From positions 1 to 48,436 of the forward strand of contig MHNE01000002.1 in assembly GCA_001819605.1 (NCBI GenBank): 48,436 nt of DNA, read 5' to 3'. Both the position numbers and the translations under genes were made by a program. Below, one piece after another: positions 1 through 48,436 of this stretch (position 1 is its first letter; each line of letters starts with the position of its first letter). The stretch is from Candidatus Portnoybacteria bacterium RIFCSPLOWO2_01_FULL_43_11. Its GTDB lineage: Bacteria; Patescibacteriota; Minisyncoccia; Portnoybacterales; UBA2143. Below the pieces are notes generated by a model. The model searched no databases, was not told the DNA's origin, and saw only the letters and a list, made by a program, of their open reading frames with translations.

Positions 1-3000
1 AGAAATATAGTACAGACGCTACTTCACCCACAATCTCCTCTATTTTATCTTCAAGCATTACTTCTAATTCATCCATTATTACATGGATAACCAATGAATC
101 GGCAACCTCGCAAGTCGAATACGGGCTAACTATAAGTTATGGCTCTCAAACAACTTTAGACACAAATTTAGTTGCTTCTCATTCAGTTAATCTTACTGGC
201 TTAACAGCAAACACAACTTATCATTATAGAGTTAAATCAAAAGACGCGGCTGGAAATCAAAGCGTAAGCGGGGATTATAGTTTTAAGACTCAATCGGCTC
301 CAGCTGGCCTTACAGTTCAAGTTGATGCAAATTCAGTTATAACAGAACTTAGCCCTTTGCTTTATGGTTGGTCAGGCAGTGGGGATTTTAGAAGCAGTGA
401 ACAGTTTATTTCTGCGGCAAAAGCTTATGGAGCAGATTCCTACCGCGTCGCAAGCAGTTATGATGTTGGCGCAAGAATGTTAGTTAAAATTGAAAATGGA
501 AAATACACTACTTTAACTAGCGATAATATCCCTCGTCAAAACTACGGACCTGTTTACAATTTAAAATTTGAAGCGACAGGCAATAGATTGAAAGTTTTTA
601 TTGATGGTCAAGAGATATTTAATGTTTTAGACTCAGATAATATTTCACCCCAAGGCAAAGTTGCCTTGATTGGATTTGGCGGCGATACAGTTTTATTTGA
701 CGACGCTTTAGTGAAAGATTCTTCGGGCAATATTCTTTTATCGAATAATTTTGAAAGCTCATCTTCTTTTTTAGGCGACGCTCAATGGACATTATCATCC
801 GGGCAATTTAAGTTTACTTCCTCTGATGGATGGATAAAAAGACCGGAATACGCGGTAGCTGGAAATTCTAATTGGAATAATTATTCTTTTGAAGTAAAAC
901 TTAAGCCCAGAATGTGGAATGGTTCATATACCGGCATTGCGGTAAGATATAACAGCGATAGCAGAGGAGTTACCAGCGGTTACCTATTTTTATGGCGTGA
1001 TTCTGAAATATGGAGAAACAGCAGTCTGCCGAGCAATGGATGGGAAGTGAAAGATTTCCCCGGAGCTTTAAATTTCGTTAATCAAACAGGCGTTAAACCT
1101 ATAATGATTGTAGGCATGAAAGCTGATGCAAAGTTTGCCGCTGATTTAGTAAGGGAAATGAACATTAATAGAGGTTACAACATTAAATATTGGGAATTGG
1201 GCAATGAAGAGTATTTTTGGGAGATGAGAAATTTTCCCGAACAATATGTGAAAGTAGTTAAAGAATTTTCTCAGGCGATGAAAGCGGTTGACCCTACGAT
1301 TAAAATAGGCGCCACTTTTAATTTTAATGAGGATGCTAAAATTTCGAGCTGGGATATACCTTTACTGCAAAATAATATTGCGGATTATATTGATTTTATC
1401 ATCACGCATTATTATTCTTTTCATGGAGAATCTCCAAACGCAAGTTATTTACAGACCGTGGCTGTCCCTTACGCCTTTGGTTACAATCATAGGGGAAAGG
1501 GAATAGGGAAGAAAGAAATAATAGAGAATTTTATAATGACTTATGCTCCGAATCGGGCGGGAAAGTTGGAGGTTTTGCTTACCGAATACCATCCGCGTTC
1601 ACCCAGAAACCAGGACATGACATTAGATGTGGGTATAGCTACGGCAGATATGTTGGGAATTTTAGGAGAACAGGGTTTTAAAGAGAGCGGTATTTATCGT
1701 TTAAACGCGGTAAGCGGTAGCAGTATTACTGGTATTTTTTCTGTTTTTGACAGTGATTACCAACCTAAACCTCATCAATTAGCAATATCTTTATTCCATG
1801 ATTATTTTCAGGATTTGGCTGTTAATGCAGATGTATATAATTCGCCTACTTTTTCTATCACCGGCGTAAGTAATGAATTACGAACTATGAGTGGCATTCC
1901 TTATCTTACAGCTTACGTAAGCAAAAGTAATGATGGGAAAAAACTTTCTTTGGCAGTAATCAACAAGCACGAAACTGATAATTTAACAAGTAGAATAGTT
2001 TTAAATGGCTTTATGCCTGAAGGTTCGGCTAATGTACGGACATTAAATGGAGCAACTGCAGATTCGATAACAGCAATCCTAACTTCAACTATATTGAACA
2101 CAGCGTCAAGTGATTTTTCATATAGTTTTCCTGCGCATTCAGTAACTATGATGGAGTTTAGTTCTGCTGTTTCAACCGACACCACTCCTCCAACAGTCTC
2201 AATCACCTCTCCAACATCAGGACAAACAGTTTCAAACACAACCGCTGTTTCCGCTTCCGCTTCGGATAATGTCGGAGTATCAGGAGTCCAGTTTAAACTT
2301 GACGGAGCCAATCTCGGAGCTGAAGACGCGACTTCACCTTATTCAATTTTTTGGAACACAACCTCTGCCGCAAACGGAACTCATACTTTAACAGCCACAG
2401 CCAGAGACGCGGCCGGGAATCAGACAACTTCGGCGGGAATCACAATCACAGTTAACAATGTTGTTTCAACCAAATTCTCAATCAATGACAGAATTATAAC
2501 CACAGATGTCCTTAATGTCCGCTCAACTCCTTCAACCTCGGGGACTCTTCTGGGAACACAACCTCTCGGAGCTTTGGGAACAGTCATCGGAGGTTCAACC
2601 TTTGCTGACGGCTACAACTGGTGGCAGATTAACTTTGACAACGCTCCTGACGGCTGGGCAGCGGAGAATTGGATGGAGAAATATACTGTTTCAGCGGGCA
2701 ATGTTTATTATGTTGATACCCAAGGTTTAGGAGGCGCGCCATCCGATGCCAATAATTGCACTTCTTTGTCTACTCCGTGTAAAACTATCCAAGCCGCAAT
2801 CAACAAAGGATGGGGATCAGGCGACACGATAAATGTCAGAGAAGGCGAATATTATGAGTATGTATTGTACACGGGTAGCGGAGGGGCTAATTGGGCAACT
2901 ATACAAAGTTATCCCGGAGAAAGAGCCACAATAGTGGGCGGACAAGTATTTACGGGGGCTTGGAGTGTTGACTCTGGGAATCGATACAAATCCGCTATTG

Positions 3001-6000
3001 GTTCAATAATGTGGACTCCTAACATAGTTGCCGTAGCTTGTCCCAGCGCACCAGAGGTTTTGCTATCGCGTTATGGCAGTAATAGTTCTGCGGATGTCAA
3101 TGCTCCTGGAGAGTGGTGGTATGATAAGGCTAACCAAAGGGCTTTTGTATGGCTTCCTAACGATGAAAACCCAAATACTTGCAGTATCCGATTTTCTAAA
3201 CTGCCCACTACAACCAATGATGGGTTAATACATATAAAGCCCGCTACTTCAGCTACTAGAATAAGAGTTCAAAATTTGGCAATTAAATACTCTAATTGGT
3301 GGGGAATAGACCTTGAGGATACAACACTTGCGGAGCATTCTAATTATACAGAAATCTTGGGTAATACAATTTCCTATGTTTATGATAGGGCGATATCAGG
3401 GAAAGGATTTGATAATGCTTTGTATAAGGACAATACTATATCTTACACAGGAATTAAAAGTGAGACTGCGCTTGAATCGGAAGCTATTTCTGTGGGTTAT
3501 GATGGTGTGAATCAAGTTATTTTAAATAACACACTTCATCATAATTATGGAATCAATCTCATGCTGTGGAAAACATCAAATAATGGGATAATGAAAGGAA
3601 ATACTTTATACACAGCGCTTGGAAAGAATACTGCTGGTGGAGCGGCGATGTATACTGAAGGCGCTGAGAGATCAAGGGTACAAAATAACCTTGTATATGA
3701 TTGGAGTAGTGATACCTCTATTGCTCACATTTGCGCTATATGTATAAATTCAGAAACAGAACAGAGTGGTGATACAAGATATAATACTTATTTAGGGAAT
3801 ATAATTAGTTCCCCCAAAATTGGTGTTTTTTTGCACTTAAATGATTATTTAACTAATGTAAATGATGTCCACCATAATCTCATTGCGCATAATACTATCT
3901 ATAACCCAAGGGGAGGTAGTAGTGGGGGCAACATCAGGGCGGGTTATGGTGTTGGGTATATAGATTTTCAAACATATATAAATAATATCTTAGTAGGATA
4001 CCAAGATAACCCTGCTCGCATGGTCTGGTATCAATCCGGTAGTACGCCAAATAGCGACTTTTTTGATAATAATCTCCATTATTCAACGGCTGTAAACACA
4101 ATGTATGGCAGTAAAACTGGAGATTCGTATAATAATTCTAACGGACAGACTGCGTTTAACTGGTGGCAGGCAAGCGCAGGAGTTGATGAAACTAATAGCA
4201 TTTATGGAAATCCTTTATTTATAGATGCCGCTAATAATAATTTTAAACTTCAGGTTGCTAGCCCGGCTATTAATACTGGGAGAGCTTGGACTAATGTGAA
4301 TGCCCAAGCCGGAACTTGCGCTGCGGGTTCGGCTACCACCATAAAAGTTGCCAATGCCGATTGGTTCCATGGCCCATGGGGAAATGATGGGGCTGGAGGA
4401 AATTATGTTGCCGGAGATTCTATCAGAATAAAAGGAGCGAGTACTGATCAGATAAGAACTGTTTCATCCGTGTCTTGGGCAACAGACGGGGCTTCTGACC
4501 GTACTGGCACGATAACCGTTACATCTCCTCTGGTTTGTCAAGCTGGGGACGGGGTGGCAATTTCGCAGTATTGGTTAGGGAGTAAACCAGATATCGGCGC
4601 TTTAGAGTTTTCAAGCGCTCCAACTAACAATCCTCCTGTTTTAGCTTCCATTGGCAGCAAAACAGTTAATGAAGGACAAACCTTAAGCTTCACTATTTCA
4701 GCCACAGATAGCGATGGAGACGCCTTAACCTATTCTGCTACTGGGTTGCCAACCGGAGCAACCTTTAACTCTTCAACCAGAACCTTCAGCTGGACTCCTT
4801 CTTCTGCCCAATCAGGAACTTATCCTGTTACCTTTTCAGTATCAGACGGAAAAGGAGGAACCGATTCTGAAACTATCACTATTACAGTGAGTGAAGTTGC
4901 AGACACCACCGCTCCAACAGTCTCCATCACCTCTCCAACATCAGGACAAACAGTTTCAAACACAATTACTATTTCCGCTTCCGCCTCGGACAATGTCGGA
5001 GTGTCAGGAGTCCAGTTCAAACTTGACGGAGCAAATCTCGGAACAGAAGACACCACCTCTCCTTATTCAGTTTCCTGGAACACAACTTCTGCCGCAAACG
5101 GCTCGCATACTTTAACGGCCACAGCCAGAGACGCGGCTGGGAATCAGACAACAGCAGCGGGAATTACGGTAATGATTAATAATGACACCACTCCGCCAGC
5201 AATCTCTTCTGTTTCGTCTTCAGGGATTACAACAAACTCGGCAACAATCACCTGGACAACCAATGAACCAACAACAAGCCAAGTTGAATATGGCTTTACC
5301 ATAACTTACGGACAAAGCACAGCCATAACTTTAACATACCAGACTTCTCATTCCGCAACTCTTTCAAGTCTTTCAGGAGGAACAACATATAACTATCGCG
5401 TCCGCTCAAAAGACGCGGCCGGGAACGAATCAATGAGCGTGAACAGAACATTCACGACTCTTCCATTGCAGGATACCACCCCTCCTTCCCAAATCACAAA
5501 CCTTTCCGCATCAGACATAACGGAAACTTCCGTTGTTCTTTCCTGGACTTCTCCCGGAGACGATGGAAACGCAGGAACAGCCTCATCCTACGATATCCGC
5601 TATTCAACGGCTTCTATCAACGGCAATAATTGGGGTAGCGCCGCTCAAGCAACAGGCGAGCCAACTCCATTACCGTCCGGTACTGTCCAAACTTATGTTG
5701 TAGTCGGGCTTTCGCCAAACGCAACTTATTATTTCGCCATCCGTTCTTCAGACGAAGTTCCAAATATTTCCGCTCTTTCCAACGTTGTTTCAGCTAAAAC
5801 CCTAGACACTGCGGCTCCAATAATCTCCAATATTCAAATTACCAACATAACCGAGGACAGCGCTAGTATATCTTTCACAACAAACGAACCGGCAGAAAGC
5901 CAAGTGGAATACGGCCTTACAATAACTTATGGCAACGCAACTCCAAACAATATTAATTTAGTTGAATCGCACAATGTTTCTTTAACCAATCTTTCCCAAA

Positions 6001-7670
6001 ACTCTACTTATCACTTTAGAATAAAAGTAAAAGACGGCTCGGGAAATATCGCCTTTTCCCAGGACTATGAGTTTACGACTTCAGGCCCAATTTTGTCTAT
6101 TTTAAACATTAGTGTTGTAAACATCAAGGCCAATTCCGCGGCAATAGAGTTTGATACCGGAAAAGAAACAACCGCTGTCATAAATTATTCTCTTGACTCA
6201 AACAACCTGAATCAAAAAATTGAAGATACTAATTTCTTAACTCATCACTCTATGACTATTTCAGGACTAAACAGAAACAAGACTTATTATTACAAGATAA
6301 CCGCCAAAGACAGAAACAATCAAACAATTTCAAGCAATGTTTTGTCGTTTGAAACCTCTGTTCGCCTGGCAAAATCTCCTAAAGTAAGCAATCTTCAAAT
6401 AAAGCGCGGCTCTCTTATACTTACTTGGGAAAACCCGATTGAATACGAGTTTTACAAGGAAACAATTGTGTTAAGATTAACAAACGACAAAACAGATATC
6501 GGGCAAATCCCTGAAAGCCATCTTAATTCCGAATTGTTCGCGGGCAACGGCAACACTTTTGAAGACAAGACCGTGGAATACGATAAAACATATTATTACT
6601 GGGTTTTCACTAAAGACGACCAGGGAACGTATTCTGACGGAGAAATGGTTTATGATATGATTTCTTCTCCAGCGTCGTCTGGCGGCGGAGGAGGCGGAGG
6701 CGGAGGCGGAGGAGGCGGAGGCGGAGGAGGTTCAGTTCAAGACACCACCCCGCCATCTTTACCAGCTAATTTTAAAGCCAGTTCCGCAGACAAACAAATC
6801 AATCTCTCTTGGAAAAATCCTCAAGACACAGACTTTGTCAGAGTCCTTATTCTCTCAACCACTACGCCAATAGAAGCAAGCTGGTCAAAAGACACTCTCC
6901 TTGCTAAAGGAGCAAGAATAGTTTATGAAGGAAGTAAAATAGAATTCACAGACACTAATTTAGATAATAATACCATTTATTACTACGCAATCTTTTCCTA
7001 TGACAGAAAACCCAATTATTCAGCTCCGGTAATTATTCAAGCTCAACCGGAAGCCGGAAGAGTCTATATTCCTCAAGAAAGAAAAGAGCAGGAACAAATC
7101 TCAAATCTTCCTTATCCCAACGGCGCTCTTTTAAAAACCCAAGACAGCGATAAAATCTACTTTATCGTTAATAATCAAAAAAGATGGATTATTAACCCGG
7201 CTGTGTTTTTCTCCTACGGCCTTATTCCCAATTCCCAAATCACTGTGTCTCAAAGCGTCTTAGACCAATACCCGGAAGGAAAGGAAATCAAAGAACCTTC
7301 GCTAAGACAAGGAACTCTTGTCAGAGCCAAAAACGATTTTAAGGTCTACATTATCAAACCACCCTACAAAAGACACATCTTTAATCCGGCTATATTTAAT
7401 ATGTACAAGCACTTTAATTGGAATAGCATCCAAGAACTTGAACCAGAGATTGTTTCTTCCTACATTACCTCTGACATCTACCGATCCATAGACGATTTTA
7501 GAGTTTATTCCTTGGAAGAAATAGACGAAGCAAAAGGTAAAGCCATTAAACATCACTTAAATCTCACCCCAACTCAATTCATTGACAAGAACTACAAATG
7601 GGAGCAAATCTTTATCGTGAATCAAGAGGAGAGGGATTATTATGAGACAGGAGGAGATTTAACGGAGTGA
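1..7670 (+). CDS. Giant secreted multidomain surface protein, 5-prime partial (frame open from the window edge; first full codon at nt 3)
   Basis: The frame of ORF 357..7670 stays stop-free back to nt 3 and already encodes an FN3-like repeat there (ITWITNESATSQVEYG...TYHYRVKSKDAAGN). Recognisable modules: LamG/ConA-like region, clan GH-A-type TIM-barrel motifs (WELGNEEY, LLTEYHP), Ig-like domains, an SH3b-like segment, parallel beta-helix repeats, a putative Ig domain (PPVLASIGSKTVNEGQTLSF), many FN3 repeats, a poly-Gly linker and a C-terminal module shared with the next two secreted proteins. Confidence 0.85.
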   Translation, partial: KYSTDATSPTISSILSSSITSNSSIITWITNESATSQVEYGLTISYGSQTTLDTNLVASHSVNLTGLTANTTYHYRVKSKDAAGNQSVSGDYSFKTQSAPAGLTVQVDANSVITELSPLLYGWSGSGDFRSSEQFISAAKAYGADSYRVASSYDVGARMLVKIENGKYTTLTSDNIPRQNYGPVYNLKFEATGNRLKVFIDGQEIFNVLDSDNISPQGKVALIGFGGDTVLFDDALVKDSSGNILLSNNFESSSSFLGDAQWTLSSGQFKFTSSDGWIKRPEYAVAGNSNWNNYSFEVKLKPRMWNGSYTGIAVRYNSDSRGVTSGYLFLWRDSEIWRNSSLPSNGWEVKDFPGALNFVNQTGVKPIMIVGMKADAKFAADLVREMNINRGYNIKYWELGNEEYFWEMRNFPEQYVKVVKEFSQAMKAVDPTIKIGATFNFNEDAKISSWDIPLLQNNIADYIDFIITHYYSFHGESPNASYLQTVAVPYAFGYNHRGKGIGKKEIIENFIMTYAPNRAGKLEVLLTEYHPRSPRNQDMTLDVGIATADMLGILGEQGFKESGIYRLNAVSGSSITGIFSVFDSDYQPKPHQLAISLFHDYFQDLAVNADVYNSPTFSITGVSNELRTMSGIPYLTAYVSKSNDGKKLSLAVINKHETDNLTSRIVLNGFMPEGSANVRTLNGATADSITAILTSTILNTASSDFSYSFPAHSVTMMEFSSAVSTDTTPPTVSITSPTSGQTVSNTTAVSASASDNVGVSGVQFKLDGANLGAEDATSPYSIFWNTTSAANGTHTLTATARDAAGNQTTSAGITITVNNVVSTKFSINDRIITTDVLNVRSTPSTSGTLLGTQPLGALGTVIGGSTFADGYNWWQINFDNAPDGWAAENWMEKYTVSAGNVYYVDTQGLGGAPSDANNCTSLSTPCKTIQAAINKGWGSGDTINVREGEYYEYVLYTGSGGANWATIQSYPGERATIVGGQVFTGAWSVDSGNRYKSAIGSIMWTPNIVAVACPSAPEVLLSRYGSNSSADVNAPGEWWYDKANQRAFVWLPNDENPNTCSIRFSKLPTTTNDGLIHIKPATSATRIRVQNLAIKYSNWWGIDLEDTTLAEHSNYTEILGNTISYVYDRAISGKGFDNALYKDNTISYTGIKSETALESEAISVGYDGVNQVILNNTLHHNYGINLMLWKTSNNGIMKGNTLYTALGKNTAGGAAMYTEGAERSRVQNNLVYDWSSDTSIAHICAICINSETEQSGDTRYNTYLGNIISSPKIGVFLHLNDYLTNVNDVHHNLIAHNTIYNPRGGSSGGNIRAGYGVGYIDFQTYINNILVGYQDNPARMVWYQSGSTPNSDFFDNNLHYSTAVNTMYGSKTGDSYNNSNGQTAFNWWQASAGVDETNSIYGNPLFIDAANNNFKLQVASPAINTGRAWTNVNAQAGTCAAGSATTIKVANADWFHGPWGNDGAGGNYVAGDSIRIKGASTDQIRTVSSVSWATDGASDRTGTITVTSPLVCQAGDGVAISQYWLGSKPDIGALEFSSAPTNNPPVLASIGSKTVNEGQTLSFTISATDSDGDALTYSATGLPTGATFNSSTRTFSWTPSSAQSGTYPVTFSVSDGKGGTDSETITITVSEVADTTAPTVSITSPTSGQTVSNTITISASASDNVGVSGVQFKLDGANLGTEDTTSPYSVSWNTTSAANGSHTLTATARDAAGNQTTAAGITVMINNDTTPPAISSVSSSGITTNSATITWTTNEPTTSQVEYGFTITYGQSTAITLTYQTSHSATLSSLSGGTTYNYRVRSKDAAGNESMSVNRTFTTLPLQDTTPPSQITNLSASDITETSVVLSWTSPGDDGNAGTASSYDIRYSTASINGNNWGSAAQATGEPTPLPSGTVQTYVVVGLSPNATYYFAIRSSDEVPNISALSNVVSAKTLDTAAPIISNIQITNITEDSASISFTTNEPAESQVEYGLTITYGNATPNNINLVESHNVSLTNLSQNSTYHFRIKVKDGSGNIAFSQDYEFTTSGPILSILNISVVNIKANSAAIEFDTGKETTAVINYSLDSNNLNQKIEDTNFLTHHSMTISGLNRNKTYYYKITAKDRNNQTISSNVLSFETSVRLAKSPKVSNLQIKRGSLILTWENPIEYEFYKETIVLRLTNDKTDIGQIPESHLNSELFAGNGNTFEDKTVEYDKTYYYWVFTKDDQGTYSDGEMVYDMISSPASSGGGGGGGGGGGGGGGGGSVQDTTPPSLPANFKASSADKQINLSWKNPQDTDFVRVLILSTTTPIEASWSKDTLLAKGARIVYEGSKIEFTDTNLDNNTIYYYAIFSYDRKPNYSAPVIIQAQPEAGRVYIPQERKEQEQISNLPYPNGALLKTQDSDKIYFIVNNQKRWIINPAVFFSYGLIPNSQITVSQSVLDQYPEGKEIKEPSLRQGTLVRAKNDFKVYIIKPPYKRHIFNPAIFNMYKHFNWNSIQELEPEIVSSYITSDIYRSIDDFRVYSLEEIDEAKGKAIKHHLNLTPTQFIDKNYKWEQIFIVNQEERDYYETGGDLTE
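2181..2460. repeat. Intragenic duplication, copy 1 (Ig-like domain TPPTVSITSPTSGQTVSNT...ARDAAGNQTT)
   Basis: About 280 bp, near-identical at DNA level to 4905..5183 by eye (only scattered substitutions). Confidence 0.85.
4905..5183. repeat. Intragenic duplication, copy 2
   Basis: Same Ig-like domain as 2181..2460. The antisense shadow ORFs 1913..2311 and 4820..5056 mirror each other for the same reason. Confidence 0.85.
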
Positions 7671-9416: not shown

Positions 9417-11243
9417 ATGTCTGATTATCAAAAAAACATCAGAAATTTTTGCATCATTTCACATATTGATCATGGTAAATCCACATTGGCGGACCGGCTT
9501 TTGGAATTAACCGGGACTATTGAAAAAAGAAAAATGCGGGAGCAGTTTTTAGATATGATGGATTTGGAAAGGGAAAAGGGGATTACGATTAAACTTCAGC
9601 CGGTGAGGTTGGAATATAAAAAAACATTCATTCTGAATCTGATTGATACTCCGGGCCATGTTGATTTTTCCTATGAAGTTTCCCGGAGCTTGGCCGCGGT
9701 AGAAGGAGCGATTTTACTGGTTGACGCGAGTCAGGGCATTCAGGCCCAGACATTGGCTAATTTATACTTGGCTCAAGAGCAAAATTTAGTTATTATTCCG
9801 GTAATTAACAAGATTGACTTAGCGAACGCGCGAATAGAAGAAGCGGAGAAGGAAATAAAAAATATTTTAGGGCAGGGGATAGAAATTTTAAAAATTTCAG
9901 CCAAAAACGGCGAGAATATTGAACGGGTTTTAGAAGCGATTATTGAAAAAATACCGGCGCCTCAAGGCAGTTCTATCGTTCCTTTGCGGGCTTTGATTTT
10001 TGATTCTAAATACGACTCGTATAAAGGCGTTATTGCTTATGTGAGGGTTGTTGACGGTCAGATTAAAAAAGGCGAGAAAATTTTAATGATGGCTTCAGAA
10101 GCGGAGAGCGAGGTCGTAGAAGTGGGGATTTTTAATCCTGCTTTAAAGGCAACGGATATTTTAAAAACCGGAGAGATTGGATACATAGCCACGGGCTTAA
10201 AAGAGATTGAGAAGTGCAGGGTAGGGGATACCATAACAAATTCAAAATTCAAAATTCAAAATTCAAAATTTATTGAAATAGAACCATTATTGGGATACGA
10301 AGAACCTAAGCCAATGATTTTTGCGGGTTTTTATCCGATTGAAGGAGATGATTTTGATTTGTTAAAAGACGGTTTGGATAAATTAAAACTTAATGATTCT
10401 TCATTGACTTTTACCCCGCACCTTTCAAAGATAGGCGCGGAGCGCCAATTTAATAACCAATCTTTGAAAGGTGCGGGGTTTAAACTGGAATCTTCAGAAG
10501 CCCTGGGCAGGGGATTTCAGTGCGGTTTCTTGGGTCTTCTTCATTTAGAAATTATCAGCCAACGGCTTAAAAGAGAATATGACTTGAATTTAGTTATTAC
10601 CAATCCTTCAGTTTCGTACCGCCGGATTCAAGGAGAAAACTCTAAAATGGAAGAGCCGTGGGTAAAGTTGGAAATTATTACCCCAAATCAATACTTGGGT
10701 CAGGTGATGAAGCTGGCCTCGGGCTTATTAAACGGGCAATACAAAGATACTCAATATCTTAGCCCGGAAAAAGTTTTGGCGACTTATGAAGCGCCTTTGG
10801 GAGAAATTATTATAGATTTTTACGACCGCTTAAAAGGCGCGACTACCGGCTACGGTTCCATGGCCTATGAGCTGATTGATTATCGGCCGGCTGATTTGGT
10901 CAAATTGGATATTTTAATAGCCGGAGAAAAAGTGGAAGCGTTTTCTAAAATTATTCCAAAACAAAAAGCCGAGCAGGAAGGCCGGGCTTTAGTGAAAAGA
11001 CTAAAAGAAGTGATTCCGCCTCATCAGTTTAGCATTCCTATTCAGGCGGCTATTGGCGGCAAAATCATTGCCAGAGAAACGATTAGGTCTTTGAGAAAAG
11101 ACGTAATCGCCGGCTTGTACGGCGGCGATTATACGCGCAAAAGAAAACTCTTGGAAAAACAAAAAAAAGGCAAAAAAAGATTAAAGCAGTTTGGCGAAGT
11201 TTCTCTTTCTCAAGAAGTATTTTTAAAGGCCTTGAGAAGATGA
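9417..11243 (+). CDS. lepA: Translation elongation factor 4 (LepA), carrying an in-frame palindromic insertion and a heptanucleotide array
   Basis: G1-G4 GTPase motifs (HIDHGKST, DTPGH, NKID) and the LepA C-terminal signature (...IPIQAAIGGKIIARETI...LEKQKKGKKR). Confidence 0.95.
   Translation: MSDYQKNIRNFCIISHIDHGKSTLADRLLELTGTIEKRKMREQFLDMMDLEREKGITIKLQPVRLEYKKTFILNLIDTPGHVDFSYEVSRSLAAVEGAILLVDASQGIQAQTLANLYLAQEQNLVIIPVINKIDLANARIEEAEKEIKNILGQGIEILKISAKNGENIERVLEAIIEKIPAPQGSSIVPLRALIFDSKYDSYKGVIAYVRVVDGQIKKGEKILMMASEAESEVVEVGIFNPALKATDILKTGEIGYIATGLKEIEKCRVGDTITNSKFKIQNSKFIEIEPLLGYEEPKPMIFAGFYPIEGDDFDLLKDGLDKLKLNDSSLTFTPHLSKIGAERQFNNQSLKGAGFKLESSEALGRGFQCGFLGLLHLEIISQRLKREYDLNLVITNPSVSYRRIQGENSKMEEPWVKLEIITPNQYLGQVMKLASGLLNGQYKDTQYLSPEKVLATYEAPLGEIIIDFYDRLKGATTGYGSMAYELIDYRPADLVKLDILIAGEKVEAFSKIIPKQKAEQEGRALVKRLKEVIPPHQFSIPIQAAIGGKIIARETIRSLRKDVIAGLYGGDYTRKRKLLEKQKKGKKRLKQFGEVSLSQEVFLKALRR
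10238..10271. repeat. Heptanucleotide tandem array (AAAATTC, about 5 units) inside lepA
   Basis: The DNA reads caaattc aaaattc aaaattc aaaattc aaaattt and translates to NSKFKIQNSKF. Confidence 0.85.
10414..10478. mobile_element. Palindromic MITE-like element, copy 1 (CCCCGCACCT tips), in-frame in lepA
   Basis: Perfect 18-bp terminal inverted repeat CCCCGCACCTTTCAAAGA / TCTTTGAAAGGTGCGGGG. Flanked by TTTA direct repeats at 10410-10413 and 10479-10482. Element plus one repeat is 69 bp, or 23 codons. Confidence 0.8.
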
Positions 11244-16389: not shown

Positions 16390-16461
16390 GCCAGCATAGC
16401 TCAGCGGTAGAGCAACTCTTTCGTAAAGAGTAGGTCGGGGGTTCAAATCCCTCTGCTGGCT
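16390..16461 (+). tRNA. tRNA-Thr (anticodon CGU)
   Basis: Acceptor stem GCCAGCA/TGCTGGC, D arm TAGCTCAGCGGTAGAGC, anticodon stem ACTCT/AGAGT with loop TTCGTAA, T loop GGTTCAAATCC. Confidence 0.85.
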
Positions 16462-16529: not shown

Positions 16530-17540
16530 TAGTACGTTTTACCCCGAAGCGCAACACCCGCTATTTAAAAAATTAGCATAGAATACCTCTTTGGGAGTTA
16601 ACCAATTAAGGCATTTTCTCGGTCGGCCGTTAATGGTATCAATGATAGCGGATATTTCCTCGTCAGTGTAATTTTCCAAAGGTCTTTTCTTGGGAATATA
16701 TTCCCGAATAAGTTTAAACGCATTTTCAACCGCTCCTTTTTCCCAAGCGGAATAAGGATGACAGAAGAAAGTTTTAATTCCCAGTTCTTTGTATCTCGCG
16801 TTTTCCGGGCCGCTATCAAACGTTAGGGATTGGACTGGAAGAGATTGAAAAATGTCTTTGAATCCTTCCATCGCGTTCTTTAACCGAGATATTTTTTTAC
16901 TCAGAATGAATCTGGATTTCCTTTCAATAGCGGCGGCTAAAGTTTCCTTGGCCCATTTAGGATAGCCCATAGTATCGGTCTCAAAGTCGCCGTATCTCCT
17001 TCGTTCGGCAATAACCCTCGGCCTTTTATCAATAAATACGCGGTTTTTGATAATTTCTTTTGTCCGTTTAACGTTTGTCCTTTTCTTTCTTCCATATTGC
17101 TTGTATCTGAGATATCCGCGCATATCCTGACCGTATTGACCGTAAAGATATTTGTAAATGACCGTGTAGTGGACAGATTTTCCGATATCTAATTTCATTC
17201 TGCCGGCAATAGATTCCGGCGACCATGAAAGCTTAAGTTTTTTCCGAATATAATTTTCAACCTCTATATCCCTTCTAATTTTCATGCCTTGGTATTTAGA
17301 ATATTTTCTGTTCACATGCGCCTTGTGGCTGGCTTTCTTTGGATTATAGACTCCGTTAGTGGAATTGCGTTTGATCTCACGTCTTACTGAAGACGGACTT
17401 CTTAAAAGAGCATGACTAATGTCTCTTTGGGAATAGCCCTTCTTCAGTAGGATGGCGAGCTCATTTCGTTCATTCTGCGTGAAGCGTTTGTACCTCATAT
17501 ATGTTAATTATGAGGTGTTGCGCTTCAAAAGCAAATTTGT
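16530..17540 (-). mobile_element. IS30-family insertion sequence (ends approximate)
   Basis: Intact transposase flanked by the inverted repeat core GAAGCGCAACACC (16546-16558) / GGTGTTGCGCTTC (17514-17526). Sits between tRNA-Thr and the GC-rich cassette. Confidence 0.8.
16539..17498 (-). CDS. IS30-family DDE transposase
   Basis: N-terminal HTH (ERNELAILLKKGYSQRDISHALLRSPSSVRREIKRN) plus an rve-type catalytic core (FETDTM..., LTFDSGPENA..., WEKGAVEN). Confidence 0.9.
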   Translation of the reverse strand: MRYKRFTQNERNELAILLKKGYSQRDISHALLRSPSSVRREIKRNSTNGVYNPKKASHKAHVNRKYSKYQGMKIRRDIEVENYIRKKLKLSWSPESIAGRMKLDIGKSVHYTVIYKYLYGQYGQDMRGYLRYKQYGRKKRTNVKRTKEIIKNRVFIDKRPRVIAERRRYGDFETDTMGYPKWAKETLAAAIERKSRFILSKKISRLKNAMEGFKDIFQSLPVQSLTFDSGPENARYKELGIKTFFCHPYSAWEKGAVENAFKLIREYIPKKRPLENYTDEEISAIIDTINGRPRKCLNWLTPKEVFYANFLNSGCCASG

Positions 17541-18905: not shown

Positions 18906-20939
18906 ATGAAACACAAATACATTATTTTAACTTTTTTATCTATCCTTGTCTTATCGGCTAATTTTGTTTCTGTAAAAGCCGCGGAGCTTGAGGATTTGCC
19001 GGATGCCGGCCTGACGCCTCAAAGCTCTTATTATTTTCTGGACCGCTTTGGCGACTGGGTTAAATTAAATATTTTTACTTTTAACGCGGTTAGAAAAGCC
19101 GAGGTGAGAGCGGGAATCGCCGAAGAAAGACTGGCTGAATTAAACGAAGTTTCAGAGAAAACTCCGGAGCAAACGGATATTATTGAAAAATTAGAAGAGA
19201 AGATTCAGGAAATAGTTGAGAAAGTTAATAACGAAACGGAAAGTTTAGACGGAAAAAATAAAGACATTTCGCGCCTGATGGAGATTTTGAACAGTTTTTC
19301 CCTTAAAAGACACGAGGTTTTAGAAAGAGCGATGGAAAAAGCGTCGGATGAGGCAAAAGACAAAATAGAAAAGGCCTTGGAAAATGTTTATGAGCAGGCG
19401 GAAAAAAGGAGAGAGATTTTATTAAAACAAAAAGAAAAAGGATTTATTTCCGAGGAGAAAGCTCGTCTGATTATTGAGAATAACTTAACCAAACTAAAAG
19501 AGCAGCTGGAGCGCCGCAAGGAAAGAATTGAAGAGATTGAAGACGAAGCCCTAAAAGAACGGCTGGAAAATATTATTGAAAAAAAATTAGAGGCGCTGGA
19601 AAACGAAATTTTAGAACTGGAATCAAACGATAATTTAAAAGAAGTTCGGGAAAATATCAGAGAAATTAAAAAAGAGGCGATTAAATCCATTCTTCAAACC
19701 AGACAGGAACTGCGGCTTCATTCAACGACTACTGAAGAAGTTTTAGAAGAAATCCACGAAGACCGGCTTGATTTAAAAGCGCGGGTTCTTGAGATAATCA
19801 AGGAAGTTGAAGAAAAAATTTCAGCCATTGAAGAAAAAATAAATCAGCTTAAAGCAGACGGAGTTTCTGTGCCGGCGAGTGTTGATAGTTTGTTAACCAA
19901 CGGTAAAAAACATTTAGAAAACGGTAAAGCGGCTTTGGGAGAAGAAAAAATCGGTCGGGCTTTTGGTCAGGCCATGGCCGCTTTAAAAAATGTCAGAAAC
20001 GCCCAAAATATTTTAGAAAGAGTTTTAAAAGGATATAAAGAATTGCCGGAAAAAATCCTCGGGCTTAAAGAAGACTTGGCTGAAATTAAAGGGAAAATAG
20101 AATCGCTTGGTCAAGCAATACCCGAGGAAATTAAAAGATTATTTAGAGAAGCCGAAGAAGAAATCAATAAAGTGGAGAGTCTTTTAAGTGAATCTGATTT
20201 TAGAGAAGCTTGGCGGCATTTTGAAATCGCGAAAAAAATTATTAAAAAGCTTGAGCATTTTCTTGACAGATTAGAAGAAGGCGAAGAATTAATAGAAGAA
20301 ACAATTGAAAGACAAAGAGAAATTTTAAAAGACCGGCTGGAAAGGGTAAAAGACATATTAAGATTTAAGCGTCTGGATGAAAGGGAAGAGCTTATTGAGA
20401 AAATGCCGGAACCAATAAGACCAAAACAAGGAGAGGGAATTATCTGCGCTCAAGTGCTTACGCCGGCCAGAAACATCAAGACAAAAGAATGCCGCGTCTT
20501 TAAAAATTCCTGTTTAGCCGAAGGGTGGCAGAGGGATCTTGACTGTCGGGAAAAAGAAAACAACGAACTCAAAACCAGATTAGATTCTCCCGGGTCGGAG
20601 ACGACAACCGATTCTTTAAGAAATTTCAAAGGAGAAGAAGATACCCCGAGGGACGAAATGACAACAAAAACCATTGATTTGACAGCCAAACAATGGGAAT
20701 TTAGTCCTAATCCGATTAAAGTAAAAAAGGGAACGAAAGTCATACTTAACATAAAAAGCATTGACGTTAATCACGGCTTTTCTTTACCGGAGTTTAATGT
20801 AAGCATTGATTTAAAGCCGGGTAAAACGGAAAAAGCTGAATTTCTTGCTTCCAAATCAGGAAGATTTCCGTTTAAATGCAGTGTTTTTTGCGGCGCCGGC
20901 CATCAAACAATGACCGGTGCGCTTATTATTGAAGATTAA
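18906..20939 (+). CDS. Secreted coiled-coil protein with a C-terminal CuA-type cupredoxin domain
   Basis: Signal peptide, a DUF5667-like start (LPDAGLTPQSSYYFLDRFGDWV), then a region of about 450 aa rich in Glu/Lys/Leu heptads. The C-terminus carries NHGFSLPEF ... FKCSVFCGAGHQTM, matching the H...C-x3-C-x3-H-x2-M CuA ligand pattern of cytochrome oxidase subunit II. Confidence 0.75.
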   Translation: MKHKYIILTFLSILVLSANFVSVKAAELEDLPDAGLTPQSSYYFLDRFGDWVKLNIFTFNAVRKAEVRAGIAEERLAELNEVSEKTPEQTDIIEKLEEKIQEIVEKVNNETESLDGKNKDISRLMEILNSFSLKRHEVLERAMEKASDEAKDKIEKALENVYEQAEKRREILLKQKEKGFISEEKARLIIENNLTKLKEQLERRKERIEEIEDEALKERLENIIEKKLEALENEILELESNDNLKEVRENIREIKKEAIKSILQTRQELRLHSTTTEEVLEEIHEDRLDLKARVLEIIKEVEEKISAIEEKINQLKADGVSVPASVDSLLTNGKKHLENGKAALGEEKIGRAFGQAMAALKNVRNAQNILERVLKGYKELPEKILGLKEDLAEIKGKIESLGQAIPEEIKRLFREAEEEINKVESLLSESDFREAWRHFEIAKKIIKKLEHFLDRLEEGEELIEETIERQREILKDRLERVKDILRFKRLDEREELIEKMPEPIRPKQGEGIICAQVLTPARNIKTKECRVFKNSCLAEGWQRDLDCREKENNELKTRLDSPGSETTTDSLRNFKGEEDTPRDEMTTKTIDLTAKQWEFSPNPIKVKKGTKVILNIKSIDVNHGFSLPEFNVSIDLKPGKTEKAEFLASKSGRFPFKCSVFCGAGHQTMTGALIIED

Positions 20940-20957
20940 TGAAAATAAAGGGATTTT

Positions 20958-20988
20958 AAATAGGCAAGAAAAATGCCTATTTTCTTTT
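20958..20988 (+). terminator. Rho-independent terminator
   Basis: Stem AAATAGGCA / TGCCTATTT with loop AGAAAAA, followed by a TCTTTT tract. Confidence 0.6.
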
Positions 20989-21015
20989 GACCGGAAATAT
21001 GTTAAATTAAGAAGA

Positions 21016-21852
21016 ATGACCGAATTTTTTAAAAAGACTGGAGGGGGTCTTGACAATCAATACGACGGCAAAAACGCTATTTTGTCAATTTACGCCGGAG
21101 CCGGAGGAACTGACGCTCAAGACTGGGCTGAAATGCTCTTGCGAATGTATCTAAAATATGTTAAAAATAAGAATTGGCTGGCCCAAGTGCTTCAGATTCG
21201 CTCCGGCAAAGAAGCTGGGATTAAAAGCGCGACAATGGAAATAAAAGCTCCTTCCGCTTACCCCGCACCTTTTGGTGATAAAAAAGTTTTTGCGCAAAGC
21301 GCGATCCCCAAAAGGTGCGGGGCTTACGGAACTCTAAAAGGAGAATCAGGGGTTCATCGGCTGGTCAGAATTTCTCCTTTTAATTCAGCTAAACTGCGGC
21401 ACACTTCTTTTGCTTTAGTGGAAGTTTTGCCGGAAATTGAAGAAGCGGAAGCGAAAATCAGGCCGGAAGATTTAAGGATAGACACTTACCGTTCCTCGGG
21501 TCCGGGCGGACAATATGTTAACGTGACTGAAACCGCGGTTCGTTTGACTCATCTGCCAACTGGTCTTGTGGCCGCTTGTCAGTCAGAAAGACTTCAGGGC
21601 GAAAATAAAAAAAAGGCCTTAAAACTGCTTTATACCAAACTTCATAAATATCTTTCTTTACAAAAAGAAGAAGAGAGAGAAAGACTGCGGGGCGAGCATC
21701 CGTCGCCTGAATGGGGAAGCCAGATTCGTTCCTATGTGCTTCATCCTTACAAAATGGTCAAAGATCACCGAACCGGCGTTAAAGTATCCGATCCTGACAA
21801 AGTTTTAGACGGAAATTTAGATAAATTCATCAAATCAAATGATAGAATTTAA
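21016..21852 (+). CDS. prfB: Peptide chain release factor 2, lacking most of N-terminal domain 1 and carrying an in-frame palindromic insertion
   Basis: SPF tripeptide anticodon (RISPFNS), GGQ motif (SSGPGGQYVNVTETAVRLTHLPTG) and the C-terminal WGSQIRSYVLHPYKMVKDHRTG. The ATG at 21016 is preferred over the track's GTG at 20917, which would overlap the upstream gene and its terminator. Confidence 0.9.
   Translation: MTEFFKKTGGGLDNQYDGKNAILSIYAGAGGTDAQDWAEMLLRMYLKYVKNKNWLAQVLQIRSGKEAGIKSATMEIKAPSAYPAPFGDKKVFAQSAIPKRCGAYGTLKGESGVHRLVRISPFNSAKLRHTSFALVEVLPEIEEAEAKIRPEDLRIDTYRSSGPGGQYVNVTETAVRLTHLPTGLVAACQSERLQGENKKKALKLLYTKLHKYLSLQKEEERERLRGEHPSPEWGSQIRSYVLHPYKMVKDHRTGVKVSDPDKVLDGNLDKFIKSNDRI
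21261..21322. mobile_element. Palindromic MITE-like element, copy 2, in-frame in prfB
   Basis: Inverted repeat CCCCGCACCTTTTGG / CCAAAAGGTGCGGGG (18 of 19 matches when extended). CTTA direct repeats at 21257-21260 and 21323-21326. Element plus one repeat is 66 bp, or 22 codons. Confidence 0.8.
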
Positions 21853-35929: not shown

Positions 35930-36367
35930 GTGGCTAATCGTCATTTATCAAGAAGTATTGCCATGCAGTCTCTTTATGAGTGGGATTTCTGGAAAAAGAA
36001 TCCAGCCAAGTTGGAAGAGATTGTTAATCGGAATATTGAAGAATTTGGGCCAGGCATAGAAGACGCCCAATTTATTTGGAATCTGGTTAACGGGGTGATT
36101 AAACACTTGGATAAACTGGACAAGATTATTGAAAAATCAGCGCCCGAGTGGCCCATTGAGCAAATCACTATTGTGGACAGAAATGTTTTAAGAATCGGTC
36201 TTTTTGAACTTTTATTCGGCAATCGCGAGGAAGTGCCGCCCAAGGTGGCGATAAACGAGGCGATTGAATTGGCCAAAACTTTTGGCGGCGAATCTTCAGG
36301 CAAGTTTATCAACGGAGTTTTAGGAACAATTTACAGGGAAATCGGCGAGCCGGGAAAAGACGAGTAA
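35930..36367 (+). CDS. nusB: Transcription antitermination factor NusB
   Basis: [13 protein letters not shown]..., [15 protein letters not shown]..., [26 protein letters not shown]. The start is GTG. Confidence 0.9.
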
Positions 36368-36368
36368 A

Positions 36369-36503
36369 CGAAAATCCGAAATCCGAAATCCGAAATTCGA
36401 AACAATATCTAATACTCAAAATTCAAACGACCAAAAAAGTTTTTAATTTTGAATTTATGATTTCTCATTTGTTTCTAATTTTGTGCTTCGAATTTCGGAT
36501 TTG
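36369..36503 (+). promoter_or_regulatory. Long imperfect hairpin in the nusB-rnc spacer (candidate RNase III autoregulatory substrate), with a GAAATCC x3 tandem repeat
   Basis: AAATCCGAAATTCGAA (left arm) pairs with TTCGAATTTCGGATTT (right arm). An inner pair is TCAAAATTCAAA / TTTGAATTTATGA. The structure ends 8 nt before the rnc GTG. Confidence 0.5.
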
Positions 36504-36510
36504 ATAATCA

Positions 36511-37197
36511 GTGGATATTTCTCTTTTAGAGCAGAAGATTAATGTAAAATTTAATAATATTGATTTGCTTCAGCAGGCGCTGGTCCATCGTTCGTACATT
36601 AATGAAAATCCGGATTTTCGTCTGGATCAGAACGAAAGACTTGAATTCCTTGGCGACGCCGTGTTAGAGTTGATAGTTACTGAATATCTTTATAATAATT
36701 ACCCTAATCCGGAAGGCGAATTGACGAACTGGCGGGCCGCTTTGGTTAACGCCAAGATGCTGGCTCAAATCGCCAAACGTTTGGAATTAAATAATCATTT
36801 ATTTCTTAGCCGGGGAGAGGCCAAAGATACGGGCCGGGCTCGTCAATACATTTTAGCCAACGCTTTTGAGGCTTTAATCGGAGCGATTTATTTGGACCAG
36901 GGTTATGAAGCGGTTAAAAATTTTATTGAGCGGGAAGTTTTAAAAGAGCTGCCCCATATTCTGGAAAATCAGCTTTTCCGCGACCCCAAGAGCCGTTTTC
37001 AGGAAATGGCTCAAGAGAAAGCTGGAATTACTCCGAGTTATGAAGTTTTGAAAGAGTGGGGGCCGGATCACGCTAAACGTTTCGTGGTCGGCGTTTATCT
37101 GGGCAAAGAATTAGTGGCCCAGGGAGAAGGAAACTCAAAGCAGGAAGCGCAGGAAAAGGCCGCCTGGGAGGGGCTAAAAAATAAAAAATGGGAATAA
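36511..37197 (+). CDS. rnc: Ribonuclease III
   Basis: RNase III signature ERLEFLGDAVLELIVTEYLY and a C-terminal dsRBD (DPKSRFQEMAQ...GEGNSKQEAQEKAA). Confidence 0.95.
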   Translation: MDISLLEQKINVKFNNIDLLQQALVHRSYINENPDFRLDQNERLEFLGDAVLELIVTEYLYNNYPNPEGELTNWRAALVNAKMLAQIAKRLELNNHLFLSRGEAKDTGRARQYILANAFEALIGAIYLDQGYEAVKNFIEREVLKELPHILENQLFRDPKSRFQEMAQEKAGITPSYEVLKEWGPDHAKRFVVGVYLGKELVAQGEGNSKQEAQEKAAWEGLKNKKWE

Positions 37198-41708: not shown

Positions 41709-41976
41709 GGGAACAGGATTAGAAATAGAATCAGCTTGAGAAGCCAAAAAATGGATGATTTCAAGGCGCGACGACGAAAATTGTACCTAAAAGGTACATT
41801 GAGGAGGAGCAACGAAGAAATCAGCCATTTTTTGGCTTCCCTTCAGGCGGGCGAATTCGGGCAAGCTTCTTTGTTGCTCGTCGCTCACGTACTTTTCAAG
41901 TACGCATCGCTCCTCGCGCCTTGAATCTTACCCGAATTCGCTCCGCTCAATTGATTTTATTTCTAATCCTGTTCCC
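41709..41976. repeat. Nested palindromic element of about 270 bp directly upstream of 23S
   Basis: Outer 19-bp perfect inverted repeat GGGAACAGGATTAGAAATA / TATTTCTAATCCTGTTCCC. Inside are two large hairpins whose cores are inverted copies of the same unit of about 60 nt. Confidence 0.75.
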
Positions 41977-48430: not shown

Positions 48431-48436
48431 TCAATA

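Follow-up and report, generated by a model that had tools for sequence, protein, structure and literature searches.

A palindromic insertion within lepA of a Portnoybacteria genome, read as an ORF-less copy of a small transposon with GIY-YIG nuclease-encoding relatives

Palindromic copies in lepA, in prfB, and in an intergenic site

The lepA gene (EF4; 9417-11243, + strand; identified from its translation, with PDB matches at an E value of 1e-178) is open through a 65-bp palindrome, and the question raised by this locus is what such a segment is and what could have placed it within the gene of a translation factor. The ORF-less element, here copy 1, occupies positions 10414-10478 of the window (the whole 48,436-nucleotide stretch of DNA that was analysed), ends in the tips CCCCGCACCT and AGGTGCGGGG, and is flanked by a TTTA target-site duplication (10410-10413 and 10479-10482); no strand is assigned to the elements, duplications, and arms. 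A sequence-only reading of this DNA had described the in-frame, stop-free palindrome correctly, but gave its perfect inverted repeat as 18 bp where it measures 19: the 19-nt left arm CCCCGCACCTTTCAAAGAT (10414-10432) is the perfect complement of the right arm (10460-10478), after which come one mismatch and two further pairs, and with the flanking A/T included the inverted repeat is 23 nt at 96%. In the predicted fold, an inner GC hairpin (GGCGC-GGA-GCGCC, 10434-10446) adjoins the left arm, and hairpins like it are present in many short copies from CPR genomes (L001, L012, L040, L043, L072, L086, and L096).

The window contains three copies with these exact tips, the two further ones lying where that reading had placed them. 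Copy 2 (21261-21322, 62 bp, 15-bp perfect stem) is within prfB (RF2; host ORF 20917-21852, + strand, with the likely true start at the ATG at 21016), and copy 3 (48368-48430, 63 bp, 20-bp perfect stem) is intergenic near the window end. Each has a different 4-bp direct repeat, CTTA for copy 2 (21257-21260 and 21323-21326) and TCAA for copy 3 (48364-48367 and 48431-48434), and the flanks match perfectly in all three cases, against a chance of 1/256 for each. The 10-mer tip, allowing one mismatch, occurs seven times in the window compared with 1.46 expected, a count reached in none of 100 shuffles. The predicted folds of the three copies range from -35 to -42 kcal/mol with z-scores of -6.4 to -8.9 (copy 1, -42.1 kcal/mol and -8.9), and at the gathering score Rfam has no family for the region, the generic miRNA-precursor hairpin matches being far below threshold.

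Together with one repeat, the element in lepA amounts to 69 bp, or 23 stop-free codons (residues 333-355, TPHLSKIGAERQFNNQSLKGAGF), and that in prfB to 66 bp, or 22 stop-free codons (PAPFGDKKVFAQSAIPKRCGAY) that precede the SPF motif by 17 residues. The LepA insert is absent from all 119 other closest LepA homologues, as is the RF2 insert from all 119 other closest RF2 homologues. Solved LepA (2ywe) and RF2 structures align with clean gaps of 23 and 22 residues, respectively, and the LepA register is restored once the element and one TTTA are taken out. The LepA insert maps to a loop of domain III that is modelled with low confidence, the AlphaFold2 pLDDT values being below 50 across residues 328-373. 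In L200, a relative with an 81% identical RF2, the prfB site is empty at the DNA level and has one CTTA only; the window is longer there by exactly 66 bp. By these comparisons of sequences, the lepA and prfB copies are insertions later than the split of the lineage from its closest sequenced relatives, and the orthologue alignment and structural placement that the sequence-only reading had suggested as checks bear out its view of the element as mobile and MITE-like, with 4 bp of the target duplicated. The copies have several properties of a MITE: they are 62-65 bp long with only the host frame open, have perfect terminal arms of 15-20 bp, are flanked in all three cases by a duplication of fixed 4-bp length with an empty site known for one, and are dispersed, with three in 48 kb and at least three loci in one Portnoybacteria MAG.

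The family in other genomes and its long members

A scan of species-representative genomes for the tip pattern, also proposed in that reading, gave at least 119 loci with the element, with various 4-bp duplications. Copy 1 had been regarded as the founder of a family; it is instead one member of a very large family that is not confined to CPR bacteria and extends over many phyla, those among the listed loci being Patescibacteria, Omnitrophota, Planctomycetota, Acidobacteriota, and others, with at least ten copy loci in one Acidobacteria MAG and at least four in one Omnitrophota MAG. The family termini, 5'-CCCC(N)CAC... and ...GTG(N)GGGG-3', are paired as a perfect stem of ~12-24 bp, and short copies are ~50-80 bp in length. 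A perfect 4-bp duplication flanks 53 of the 129 copies listed (1/256 by chance); it is mostly TNNA, with TGAA, TTTA, TTCA, TCAA, and TTGA the commonest. An alternative in which the duplication is 2 bp and the termini are A...T was rejected, as the non-TNNA duplications CTTA, CGTG, TGTG, and CACA would require the termini to vary. The flanking 4-mers vary and are duplicated, unlike insertion of the IS200/IS605 type beside a fixed tetra- or pentanucleotide without duplication. In an ungapped comparison of 92 distinct short copies, positions 11-13 pair in 79-98% of cases vs. 51-75% for shuffled partners; past position 13 the covariation is weak because many copies, especially those of Omnitrophota, have bulges. 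The viral collection matched the pattern only twice, and the idea of phage carriage was dropped. The exact 10-bp tips are common to Patescibacteria, Omnitrophota, Planctomycetota, and Acidobacteriota, which suggests that the family has passed horizontally between bacteria that co-occur in groundwater and freshwater.

Copies that lie deep within genes (flanked on either side by no fewer than about 75 host-ORF codons) were found in lepA, prfB, ArgRS (L081), a membrane protein (L086), and a kinase (L103). Every one of them keeps the frame and carries no stop, and this pattern argues for translation of the inserts rather than their removal, giving statistical support to what the sequence-only reading had put forward from the reading frame. 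A hairpin of -42 kcal/mol within an mRNA could impede ribosomes. Five further short copies occupy the KG|FT site of pilin genes, each of which recreates KGAG|FT.

Long versions of ~280-320 bp have the family tips and duplications and contain a single gene, which encodes a ~85-aa GIY-YIG nuclease of the Slx1/UPF0213 type. In L074, a 300-bp element with the exact window tips and a TTGA duplication contains an 85-aa ORF, the end of which overlaps the right arm, and this element lies 60 bp from a short copy with identical tips. In the long elements of L097 and L047, the tips are compensated variants and the duplications are TTTA and TATA, respectively; here the tips differ between long and short copies of one genome. 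Further long elements with the same ends as the short ones (L120, L121, L123, L135, L145, and others) also have the nuclease as their sole gene. The ORFs match Pfam GIY-YIG (PF01541) with E values of 1e-10 to 1e-16, and the closest solved proteins are the UPF0213 proteins BH0048 (1zg2, 8e-10) and EF2693 (1ywl, 2.5e-7), followed by SLX1 (1.5e-5); the weaker profile matches to I-TevI (0.05) and UvrC (0.5) place them on the Slx1/UPF0213 branch.

Of the best 80 metagenomic relatives of the nuclease, approximately 65 are bracketed by inverted repeats, perfect over 12-24 bp, with tips of the CCCC(N)CAC type, a proportion that describes this clade and not all small GIY-YIG genes because the relatives were fetched by a profile made from tip-bearing elements. 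Ten of the bracketed genes have the exact CCCCGCAC(C) tip of the window, and the commonest flanking repeat around these metagenomic elements is 4 bp. A set of 57 such bracketed ORFs has no internal stops and shares invariant Y5, Y16, R26, H30, E50, R61, E62, and K66, and the catalytic residues of the GIY-YIG domain are intact, a statement that concerns the long relatives only. Among the long elements, 12 of 58 have no duplication, and copies beside tRNA genes have 7-bp repeats. One long element was found at two unrelated sites (L132 and L150), and in L196 a 42-bp palindrome shares an arm with the adjacent long element. An identical nuclease on 24 contigs (P0261) was discarded as evidence of mobility because all are one locus in one population. 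The 48-kb window has no GIY-YIG gene, so the source that would act in trans on its three copies is unseen. We found no earlier description of the element in the literature on the tip motif, on MITEs in these phyla, on GIY-YIG with repeats or duplications, on UPF0213/YhbQ, or on REPIN/RPE.

A conventional transposase was also sought. The sequence-only reading had seen no cognate transposase in the window; a transposase gene of the IS30 family does lie there (16539-17498, - strand), but its inverted repeats (GAAGCGCAACACC..., 16546-16573 and 17499-17526) are unrelated to CCCCGCACCT. The IS30 family makes duplications of 2-3 bp. No transposase lies between such tips at any of the loci examined, and all-against-all clustering of 1205 ORFs from the 119 listed loci gave no recurrent transposase, only pilus and housekeeping clusters. 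Pairing of distant tips with matching flanks gave a single candidate autonomous copy (L030, 3.4 kb, TGAA), which is unconvincing because TGAA is the commonest target in its phylum, and the orphan tips beside ORFs in L069 and L094 have ribosomal and housekeeping genes for neighbours and no transposases. CC ends with a 4-bp duplication are typical of IS1380/piggyBac-type elements, an origin that the data do not support and that was abandoned after the GIY-YIG elements emerged.

Proposed mechanism and its alternatives

Based on these data, we propose that the 65-bp segment in lepA is probably a non-autonomous, ORF-less copy of a small DNA transposon, the long members of which encode a GIY-YIG nuclease. 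As judged from sequence, the most plausible reading of the window copies is that they are derivatives without an ORF, moved in trans, because ~300-bp versions with the nuclease gene share their tips and duplications; we infer the trans step. Specifically, a nuclease encoded by a full-length copy at another place in the genome, or in another member of the community, would recognise the tips, or the stem that they form, and would make the breaks that move long and short copies alike, while a staggered break at the target, filled by host repair, would generate the duplication. Hairpin or cruciform DNA may be the intermediate, as suggested by arms that stay perfectly complementary though their sequence varies between copies. 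Slx1-type nucleases cut branched and stem-loop DNA. GIY-YIG nucleases hydrolyse DNA and do not join it, and we know of none reported as a transposase; one may speculate that the host would have to supply the ligation and repair steps. The copies in lepA and prfB would survive because the element plus its duplication is a multiple of three and stop-free, and they would be translated as extra loops of 23 and 22 residues. In gene-dense genomes, we propose that only harmless insertions would persist, namely as in-frame loops, in prepilin leader peptides, at tRNA 5' ends, and at gene junctions.

We give an even chance to the broader reading that these elements form an unrecognised class of prokaryotic transposon, a ~300-bp unit with perfect hairpin-forming ends that would be moved by its only gene product, a minimal nuclease of the Slx1-like GIY-YIG kind, and that would have given rise to swarms of ORF-less copies of 50-80 bp. 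These would have spread between phyla, and would persist in gene-dense genomes through insertion in-frame in essential proteins, in prepilin leader peptides, and at tRNA 5' ends. At the prepilin leaders and tRNA 5' ends, an end of the element would itself restore the host signal.

Terminal inverted repeats with a fixed short duplication are the classical signature of DDE transposases, and GIY-YIG nucleases are not known to catalyse strand transfer, so that the elements could be ordinary MITEs moved in trans by an unseen DDE enzyme, with the GIY-YIG gene a passenger or retention factor. The window does have an IS30-family transposase, but its inverted repeats are unrelated to the tips and the family duplicates 2-3 bp of target, no transposase lies between tips at the loci examined, the ORF clustering gave no recurrent one, and the nuclease is the sole gene found between tips, in ~65 independent elements and under purifying selection; we consider this explanation unlikely. 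It is quite unlikely, in our assessment, that the short palindromes are primary and spread by a host process, having been invaded by the GIY-YIG gene as a parasite of the homing endonuclease kind. In favour, the GIY-YIG family is a classical source of homing endonuclease genes, the ORF is always between the arms, and the tip-to-ATG distance is variable, at 13-45 nt. Nevertheless, the protein is the ~85-aa catalytic domain alone, without a DNA-binding domain such as that of I-TevI, the overlap of ORF and right arm in L074 indicates a tightly integrated unit, protein and tips co-occur over many tip variants, and no host process is known that inserts palindromes with 4-bp duplications.

The two remaining alternatives concern the inserts themselves. 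Both intragenic copies in the window have a very stable hairpin between identical codons (TTT...TTT in lepA and TAC...TAC in prfB), an arrangement that resembles programmed translational bypassing, and the inserts could be cut from the mRNA or skipped by way of these codons instead of being translated. Such removal or bypassing imposes no constraint on length or stops, and the finding that every deep intragenic copy with its duplication is a multiple of three and stop-free counts against it, as does the lack of a match to any known RNA family in the region; we judge it very improbable. The chance is close to nil that the lepA and prfB segments are artefacts of what is a metagenome assembly, or native conserved protein segments that are palindromic by accident. 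Both inserts are also present in database protein clusters from other contigs (P0001 and P0121, the latter one residue different from the window protein), and an artefact is unlikely because the inserts thus recur in independent contigs and in a slightly different strain; in addition, the element is present at more than 100 loci of unrelated assemblies, and neither segment occurs in any of the 119 other closest orthologues of its protein.

Recent and apparently translated transposon insertions in essential translation factors of an ultra-small bacterium represent a route to new protein loops that was earlier documented mainly in Rickettsia. The finding also offers a concrete and testable role for the very common genes for ~85-aa "GIY-YIG nuclease family proteins", the function of which is a question that dates back to 2006 or earlier (PMC1564403). 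Were the nuclease the mobility enzyme, it would be a new enzymatic class for prokaryotic transposons in a unit of only ~300 bp, and the long element would rank as the smallest known autonomous transposon and as the first in prokaryotes to depend on a GIY-YIG nuclease for its movement. The insert peptides (TPHL...KGAG, PAPF...KRCG, and PRTF...KVRG) are likely to mislead gene annotation of metagenome-assembled genomes, as are the apparent "fusions" of the GIY-YIG-pilin and GIY-YIG-domain types.

Comparison with known systems

Like classical MITEs (Correia, ERIC, RUP, and TIMEs), the elements are small, non-coding, and multi-copy, end in inverted repeats, and duplicate their target. Insertion sequences with DDE transposases are the source of the known MITEs, whereas the gene-carrying relatives of the present elements encode a GIY-YIG nuclease and not a recognised transposase. 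A 2024 review of prokaryotic MITEs mentions neither GIY-YIG nor any other nuclease partner.

With the REPIN/RAYT system they share hairpin-forming, non-autonomous repeats, a small nuclease-type gene flanked by the repeat, and a structure that counts more than arm sequence. RAYTs belong to the HUH tyrosine transposases, have IS200/IS605 as relatives, and are usually single-copy, and REPs have GTAG or CGTC tags and are extragenic, without duplication. The gene described here is instead of the PF01541 GIY-YIG family and not HUH (Y1), insertion duplicates 4 bp, and many of the copies lie within genes. Yeast mitochondria also have mobile GC clusters and "byp" elements, which are short palindromes with GC tips and short repeats on either side, and which insert into protein genes; both kinds are organellar and are not known to have an enzyme, and the byp elements are bypassed and not translated by ribosomes.

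The homing endonucleases I-TevI and the Seg proteins are likewise selfish-element nucleases with the same catalytic fold. They have an extra DNA-binding domain and act at one cognate site via recombination, without inverted repeats or duplications, whereas the present protein is only a catalytic domain of ~85 aa and is found at many unrelated sites with both. It is more like the Slx1-like/UPF0213 proteins BH0048 and EF2693, and is of the "minimal stand-alone" GIY-YIG kind described in PMC1564403; this 2006 paper also remarked on a GIY-YIG domain "very recently inserted" into an HsdR protein, without explaining it. A role in repair was predicted for proteins of this group, and their annotation goes no further than a nuclease family; none is known to have been described as the product of a mobile unit flanked by repeats.

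Rickettsia palindromic elements are ~150 bp in length and lie in-frame in unrelated protein genes, housekeeping genes included, where they are apparently translated; no nuclease or GIY-YIG gene is linked to them in PMC10969869, from which this description is taken. The present elements likewise insert in-frame into protein-coding genes, but differ in their length of 51-80 bp, CCCC...GGGG tips, 4-bp duplication, presence in many phyla, and gene-carrying relatives, and the host of the window copies is a member of the Patescibacteria close to Portnoybacteria. The analogy that the sequence-only reading had drawn with the Rickettsia elements is supported by our analysis as one of behaviour, not of family membership.

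Palindromic insertions in lepA and prfB

The window carries three short palindromic elements that lack an ORF. Copy 1, in lepA, is 65 bp long (10414-10478), with a perfect 19-bp stem (10414-10432 with 10460-10478), an inner hairpin (GGCGC-GGA-GCGCC) and TTTA on its flanks; copy 2, in prfB, spans 62 bp (21261-21322) with a stem of 15 bp between CTTA repeats, and the intergenic copy 3 spans 63 bp (48368-48430) with a stem of 20 bp between TCAA repeats. The positions, tips and 4-bp flanks are as described in an earlier sequence-only reading, which rightly called the inverted repeat of copy 1 perfect but gave its length as 18 rather than 19 bp. Within the window the 10-nt tip, with at most one mismatch, occurs seven times where 1.46 are expected, and none of 100 shuffles gave seven. 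Predicted fold energies of the copies are -35 to -42 kcal/mol (z-scores -6.4 to -8.9). The elements are insertions bounded by perfect inverted repeats that share a conserved tip, usually accompanied by a 4-bp duplication.

In a search of a 5.8-billion-protein collection, the window's own LepA was the only one of the 120 closest LepA proteins with residues at the insert position; the next-nearest relative is 73% identical, and none of the other 119 has the insert. Alignment to the Aquifex LepA structure 2ywe opens a clean 23-residue gap opposite it. The AlphaFold2 model of LepA, with pLDDT below 50 at residues 328-373, shows the insert as an unstructured loop that links a helix to a strand in domain III, which would fit a tolerated surface loop, the location raised in the earlier reading. 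In RF2, the insert is confined to the window's own protein cluster (P0121) and is absent from all 119 other closest homologues, and the alignment to solved RF2 breaks at a duplicated 'AY'. The contig of an 81%-identical RF2 (L200) reads ...GCTCCTTCT GCTTA TGG... with a single CTTA, the window being exactly 66 bases longer, and at the DNA level this is a true empty site for the prfB copy.

Counting one repeat, the lepA insertion is 69 bp and the prfB insertion 66 bp, both without a stop. When element and one repeat were deleted in silico and restoration of a long ORF was scored at the listed loci, all copies flanked to left and right by substantial host ORF were in-frame and stop-free, namely those deep within lepA, prfB, an arginyl-tRNA synthetase (L081), a membrane protein (L086) and a kinase (L103); out-of-frame copies all either have only a short open stretch to one side or are located in GC-rich DNA. 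This argues for translation of the intragenic inserts, in keeping with the earlier proposal that they are translated rather than removed. In five type IV pilin-like genes a short copy occupies one common site in the prepilin motif, KG/FT, between duplicated TTTA repeats; here the right tip plus repeat encodes KGAG/FT, which restores the pilin cleavage site and brings the insert into the leader peptide. The elements are found at sites where they seem to do no harm. We consider it very probable that the element is a mobile one whose insertion is translated.

Other CPR LepA proteins (P0003, P0017, P0025, P0038, P0060, P0071, P0084, P0094, P0112, P0114 and others) have unrelated inserts of 8-44 residues at other sites, especially after PVRMEY, with the recurrent peptides GSHPEQSEGS... 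and VIASEAKQSR...RNDK. These resemble translated copies of other repeat families, and CPR may thus in general accept repeats inserted in frame into their essential genes. It should also be noted that RF2 of the window (21016-21852; homologues P0122-P0216) has about 245-260 residues in this lineage and most close relatives, compared with about 365 in model bacteria, and its alignment to solved RF2 begins near residue 118; from sequence comparison, the N-terminal domain seems either absent or supplied from another locus.

Spread and target duplications of the family

A scan for CCCCGCACCT-N30-60-AGGTGCGGGG, with one genome per species, matched at least 119 loci, and identical 4-bp flanks were present in 53 of 129 copies among the matches listed. 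Among these matches the flanks TGAA (12), TTTA (10), TTCA (8), TCAA (5), TTGA (5), TAAA (3) and TGGA (3) describe a target of roughly TNNA. Since duplications outside TNNA also occur (CTTA in the window; CGTG, TGTG and CACA elsewhere), 4 bp are duplicated and the element proper begins at CCCC. Hosts among the listed matches are Saccharibacteria and many Parcubacteria lineages, among them Candidatus Portnoybacteria with at least three loci (two with arms resembling window copies 1 and 3), as well as Omnitrophota, Planctomycetota, one Acidobacteria MAG with at least ten loci, low-GC Pseudomonadota MAGs and others. Matches in Streptomyces and other high-GC genomes are without duplications and probably reflect chance.

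An Omnitrophota subfamily (L002, L004, L007, L015, L030, L046, L063 and others) has mostly intergenic elements of 70-79 bp, flanked by TGAA/TTCA in nearly all copies and containing a second, degenerate copy of the right tip (AAGGCGTGGGG); L004 shows a tandem tip-TGAA-tip-TGAA.

Long relatives with a GIY-YIG gene and a proposed mechanism

Such ends have so far been seen to enclose no gene other than that of an intact minimal GIY-YIG nuclease. A 300-bp element of a Parcubacteria genome (L074), located 60 bp from a short copy, has the exact window tips, 19-bp arms, a TTGA duplication and one 85-codon ORF. The same layout is seen in L097 (tips CCCCTCACCT/AGGTGAGGGG, duplication TTTA) and L047 (tips CCCCACACCT/AGGTGTGGGG, duplication TATA), where a change in one tip is matched by a compensating change in the opposite tip. 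These ORFs encode GIY-YIG catalytic domains (PF01541, E 1e-10 to 1e-16), and their profile recovered 491 relatives in metagenome contigs. Among the best 80 of these, a sample biased to the clade that served as query, about 65 lie between perfect 12-24 bp inverted repeats in units of 280-320 bp; by our estimate, a 12-bp inverted repeat would arise by chance in a stretch of such size with a probability of about 0.003. Ten of the bracketed units have the exact tip CCCCGCAC(C), and the tips of others are CCCAGCAC, CCCCTCAC, CCCCCACAC, CCCCCCAC or (C/T)GCCACAC. The commonest flanking-repeat length is 4 bp; the ATG is 13-45 nt inward of the left tip, and 7-30 nt separate the stop from the right tip. 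In 57 element ORFs there is no internal stop, and Tyr5, Tyr16, Arg26, His30, Glu50, Arg61, Glu62 and Lys66 are invariant; the nearest solved proteins are UPF0213 BH0048 and EF2693, followed by the structure-specific nuclease SLX1. Copies of one long element, about 90% identical, adjoin a tRNA-Ala gene in L132, L136 and L151 and occupy an unrelated site in L150, hence the long form has moved. At L196, a 42-bp palindrome has a 15-nt arm in common with the adjoining long element, as would be expected for its ORF-less derivative.

We propose, with moderate confidence, that the GIY-YIG protein is the element's enzyme, which would mobilize the long copies and act in trans on the short ones. No GIY-YIG gene is present within the 48-kb window. 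Arm sequence varies freely yet stays perfectly complementary, even 260 nt apart, which leads us to propose physical pairing of the ends, either in a hairpin formed by single-stranded DNA or in a cruciform. Cuts by the nuclease would fall at the base of this structure and, with a 4-nt stagger, at the TNNA target, and host polymerase and ligase might, more speculatively, finish the insertion.

Among less probable alternatives, an unseen DDE transposase could move the palindromes. The earlier reading saw no cognate transposase in the window and missed an IS30-family gene (16539-17498, minus strand; NF033563, E 4e-58) next to a tRNA gene (16390-16461), but the ends of this gene's element, 28-nt imperfect inverted repeats (16546-16573 and 17499-17526), are unrelated to the palindromic elements. 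A homing-type nuclease might instead parasitize older palindromes. RNA-level loss of the inserts, whether by mRNA removal or by ribosomal bypass, is improbable, since neither would require the in-frame, stop-free state observed. That the palindromes are an artefact is very improbable; P0121 is one residue off the window protein, so the prfB insertion is present in more than one assembled strain.

In three long elements with different tips, L139 (1486-1767), L144 (1465-1810) and L097 (2340-2639), a stop-less GIY-YIG ORF crosses the right tip and continues into a type IV pilin-like gene (junctions ...SGAG/FIALITVF, ...DGAG/FTIIELIL and ...KGEG/FTLTEILIV); the nuclease stands where the prepilin leader would be, the G/F peptidase site is kept, and cleavage could release both nuclease and mature pilin. 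Other long elements abut tRNA genes (L132/L136/L151 near 1766, L195 379, L147 333, L185 1766, L190 1772, L167 1773), the right tip's final G's doubling as the first tRNA nucleotides, and have flanking repeats of 7 bp (CCGGTAG) rather than 4. Many tip variants resemble a tRNA 3' end (a C-rich stretch of 6-7 nt, A, CC(A/T)), which, with the tRNA adjacency, may reflect their origin, their targeting or selection for sites where insertion is harmless. In a widespread population (24 contigs), one GIY-YIG element (L201-L205, 1471-1777; tips TCCCGCACC, flanks CATGAA) is fixed at a gene junction, where the downstream gene takes its start codon from the duplicated ATGAA and the upstream gene ends within the left arm.

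Neighbouring features and known systems

Elsewhere in the window, a 34-nt inverted repeat of AAATCCG heptamers (AAATCCGAAATCCGAAATCCGAAATTCG...; 36372-36502, 63 nt between arms) lies between ORFs at 35930-36367 and 36511-37197, and two inverted-repeat pairs of 23-28 nt (41740-41950) lie just upstream of the 23S gene. Within the rRNA operon, the stretch that separates the 16S/tRNA genes from the 23S gene contains a 228-aa ORF (40843-41529) showing TM-helix motifs of mechanosensitive channels. A 2437-aa ORF (357-7670) with many Ig-like, fibronectin III and He_PIG domains presumably encodes a giant surface protein.

The full-text literature searched, which leaves most subscription journals outside its coverage, contained no prior description of a repeat-flanked GIY-YIG element or of the tip motif. 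A 2006 survey of GIY-YIG nucleases described prokaryotic Slx1-like proteins as minimal stand-alone domains and left unexplained one 'very recently inserted' copy within an HsdR protein (PMC1564403), and a 2025 study placed a GIY-YIG protein among genes horizontally donated by Patescibacteria (PMC12455944). Although they seem to lack the defining features of both systems, the short copies are like Rickettsia palindromic elements (PMC10969869) in behaviour and like REPIN/RAYT pairs in logic.
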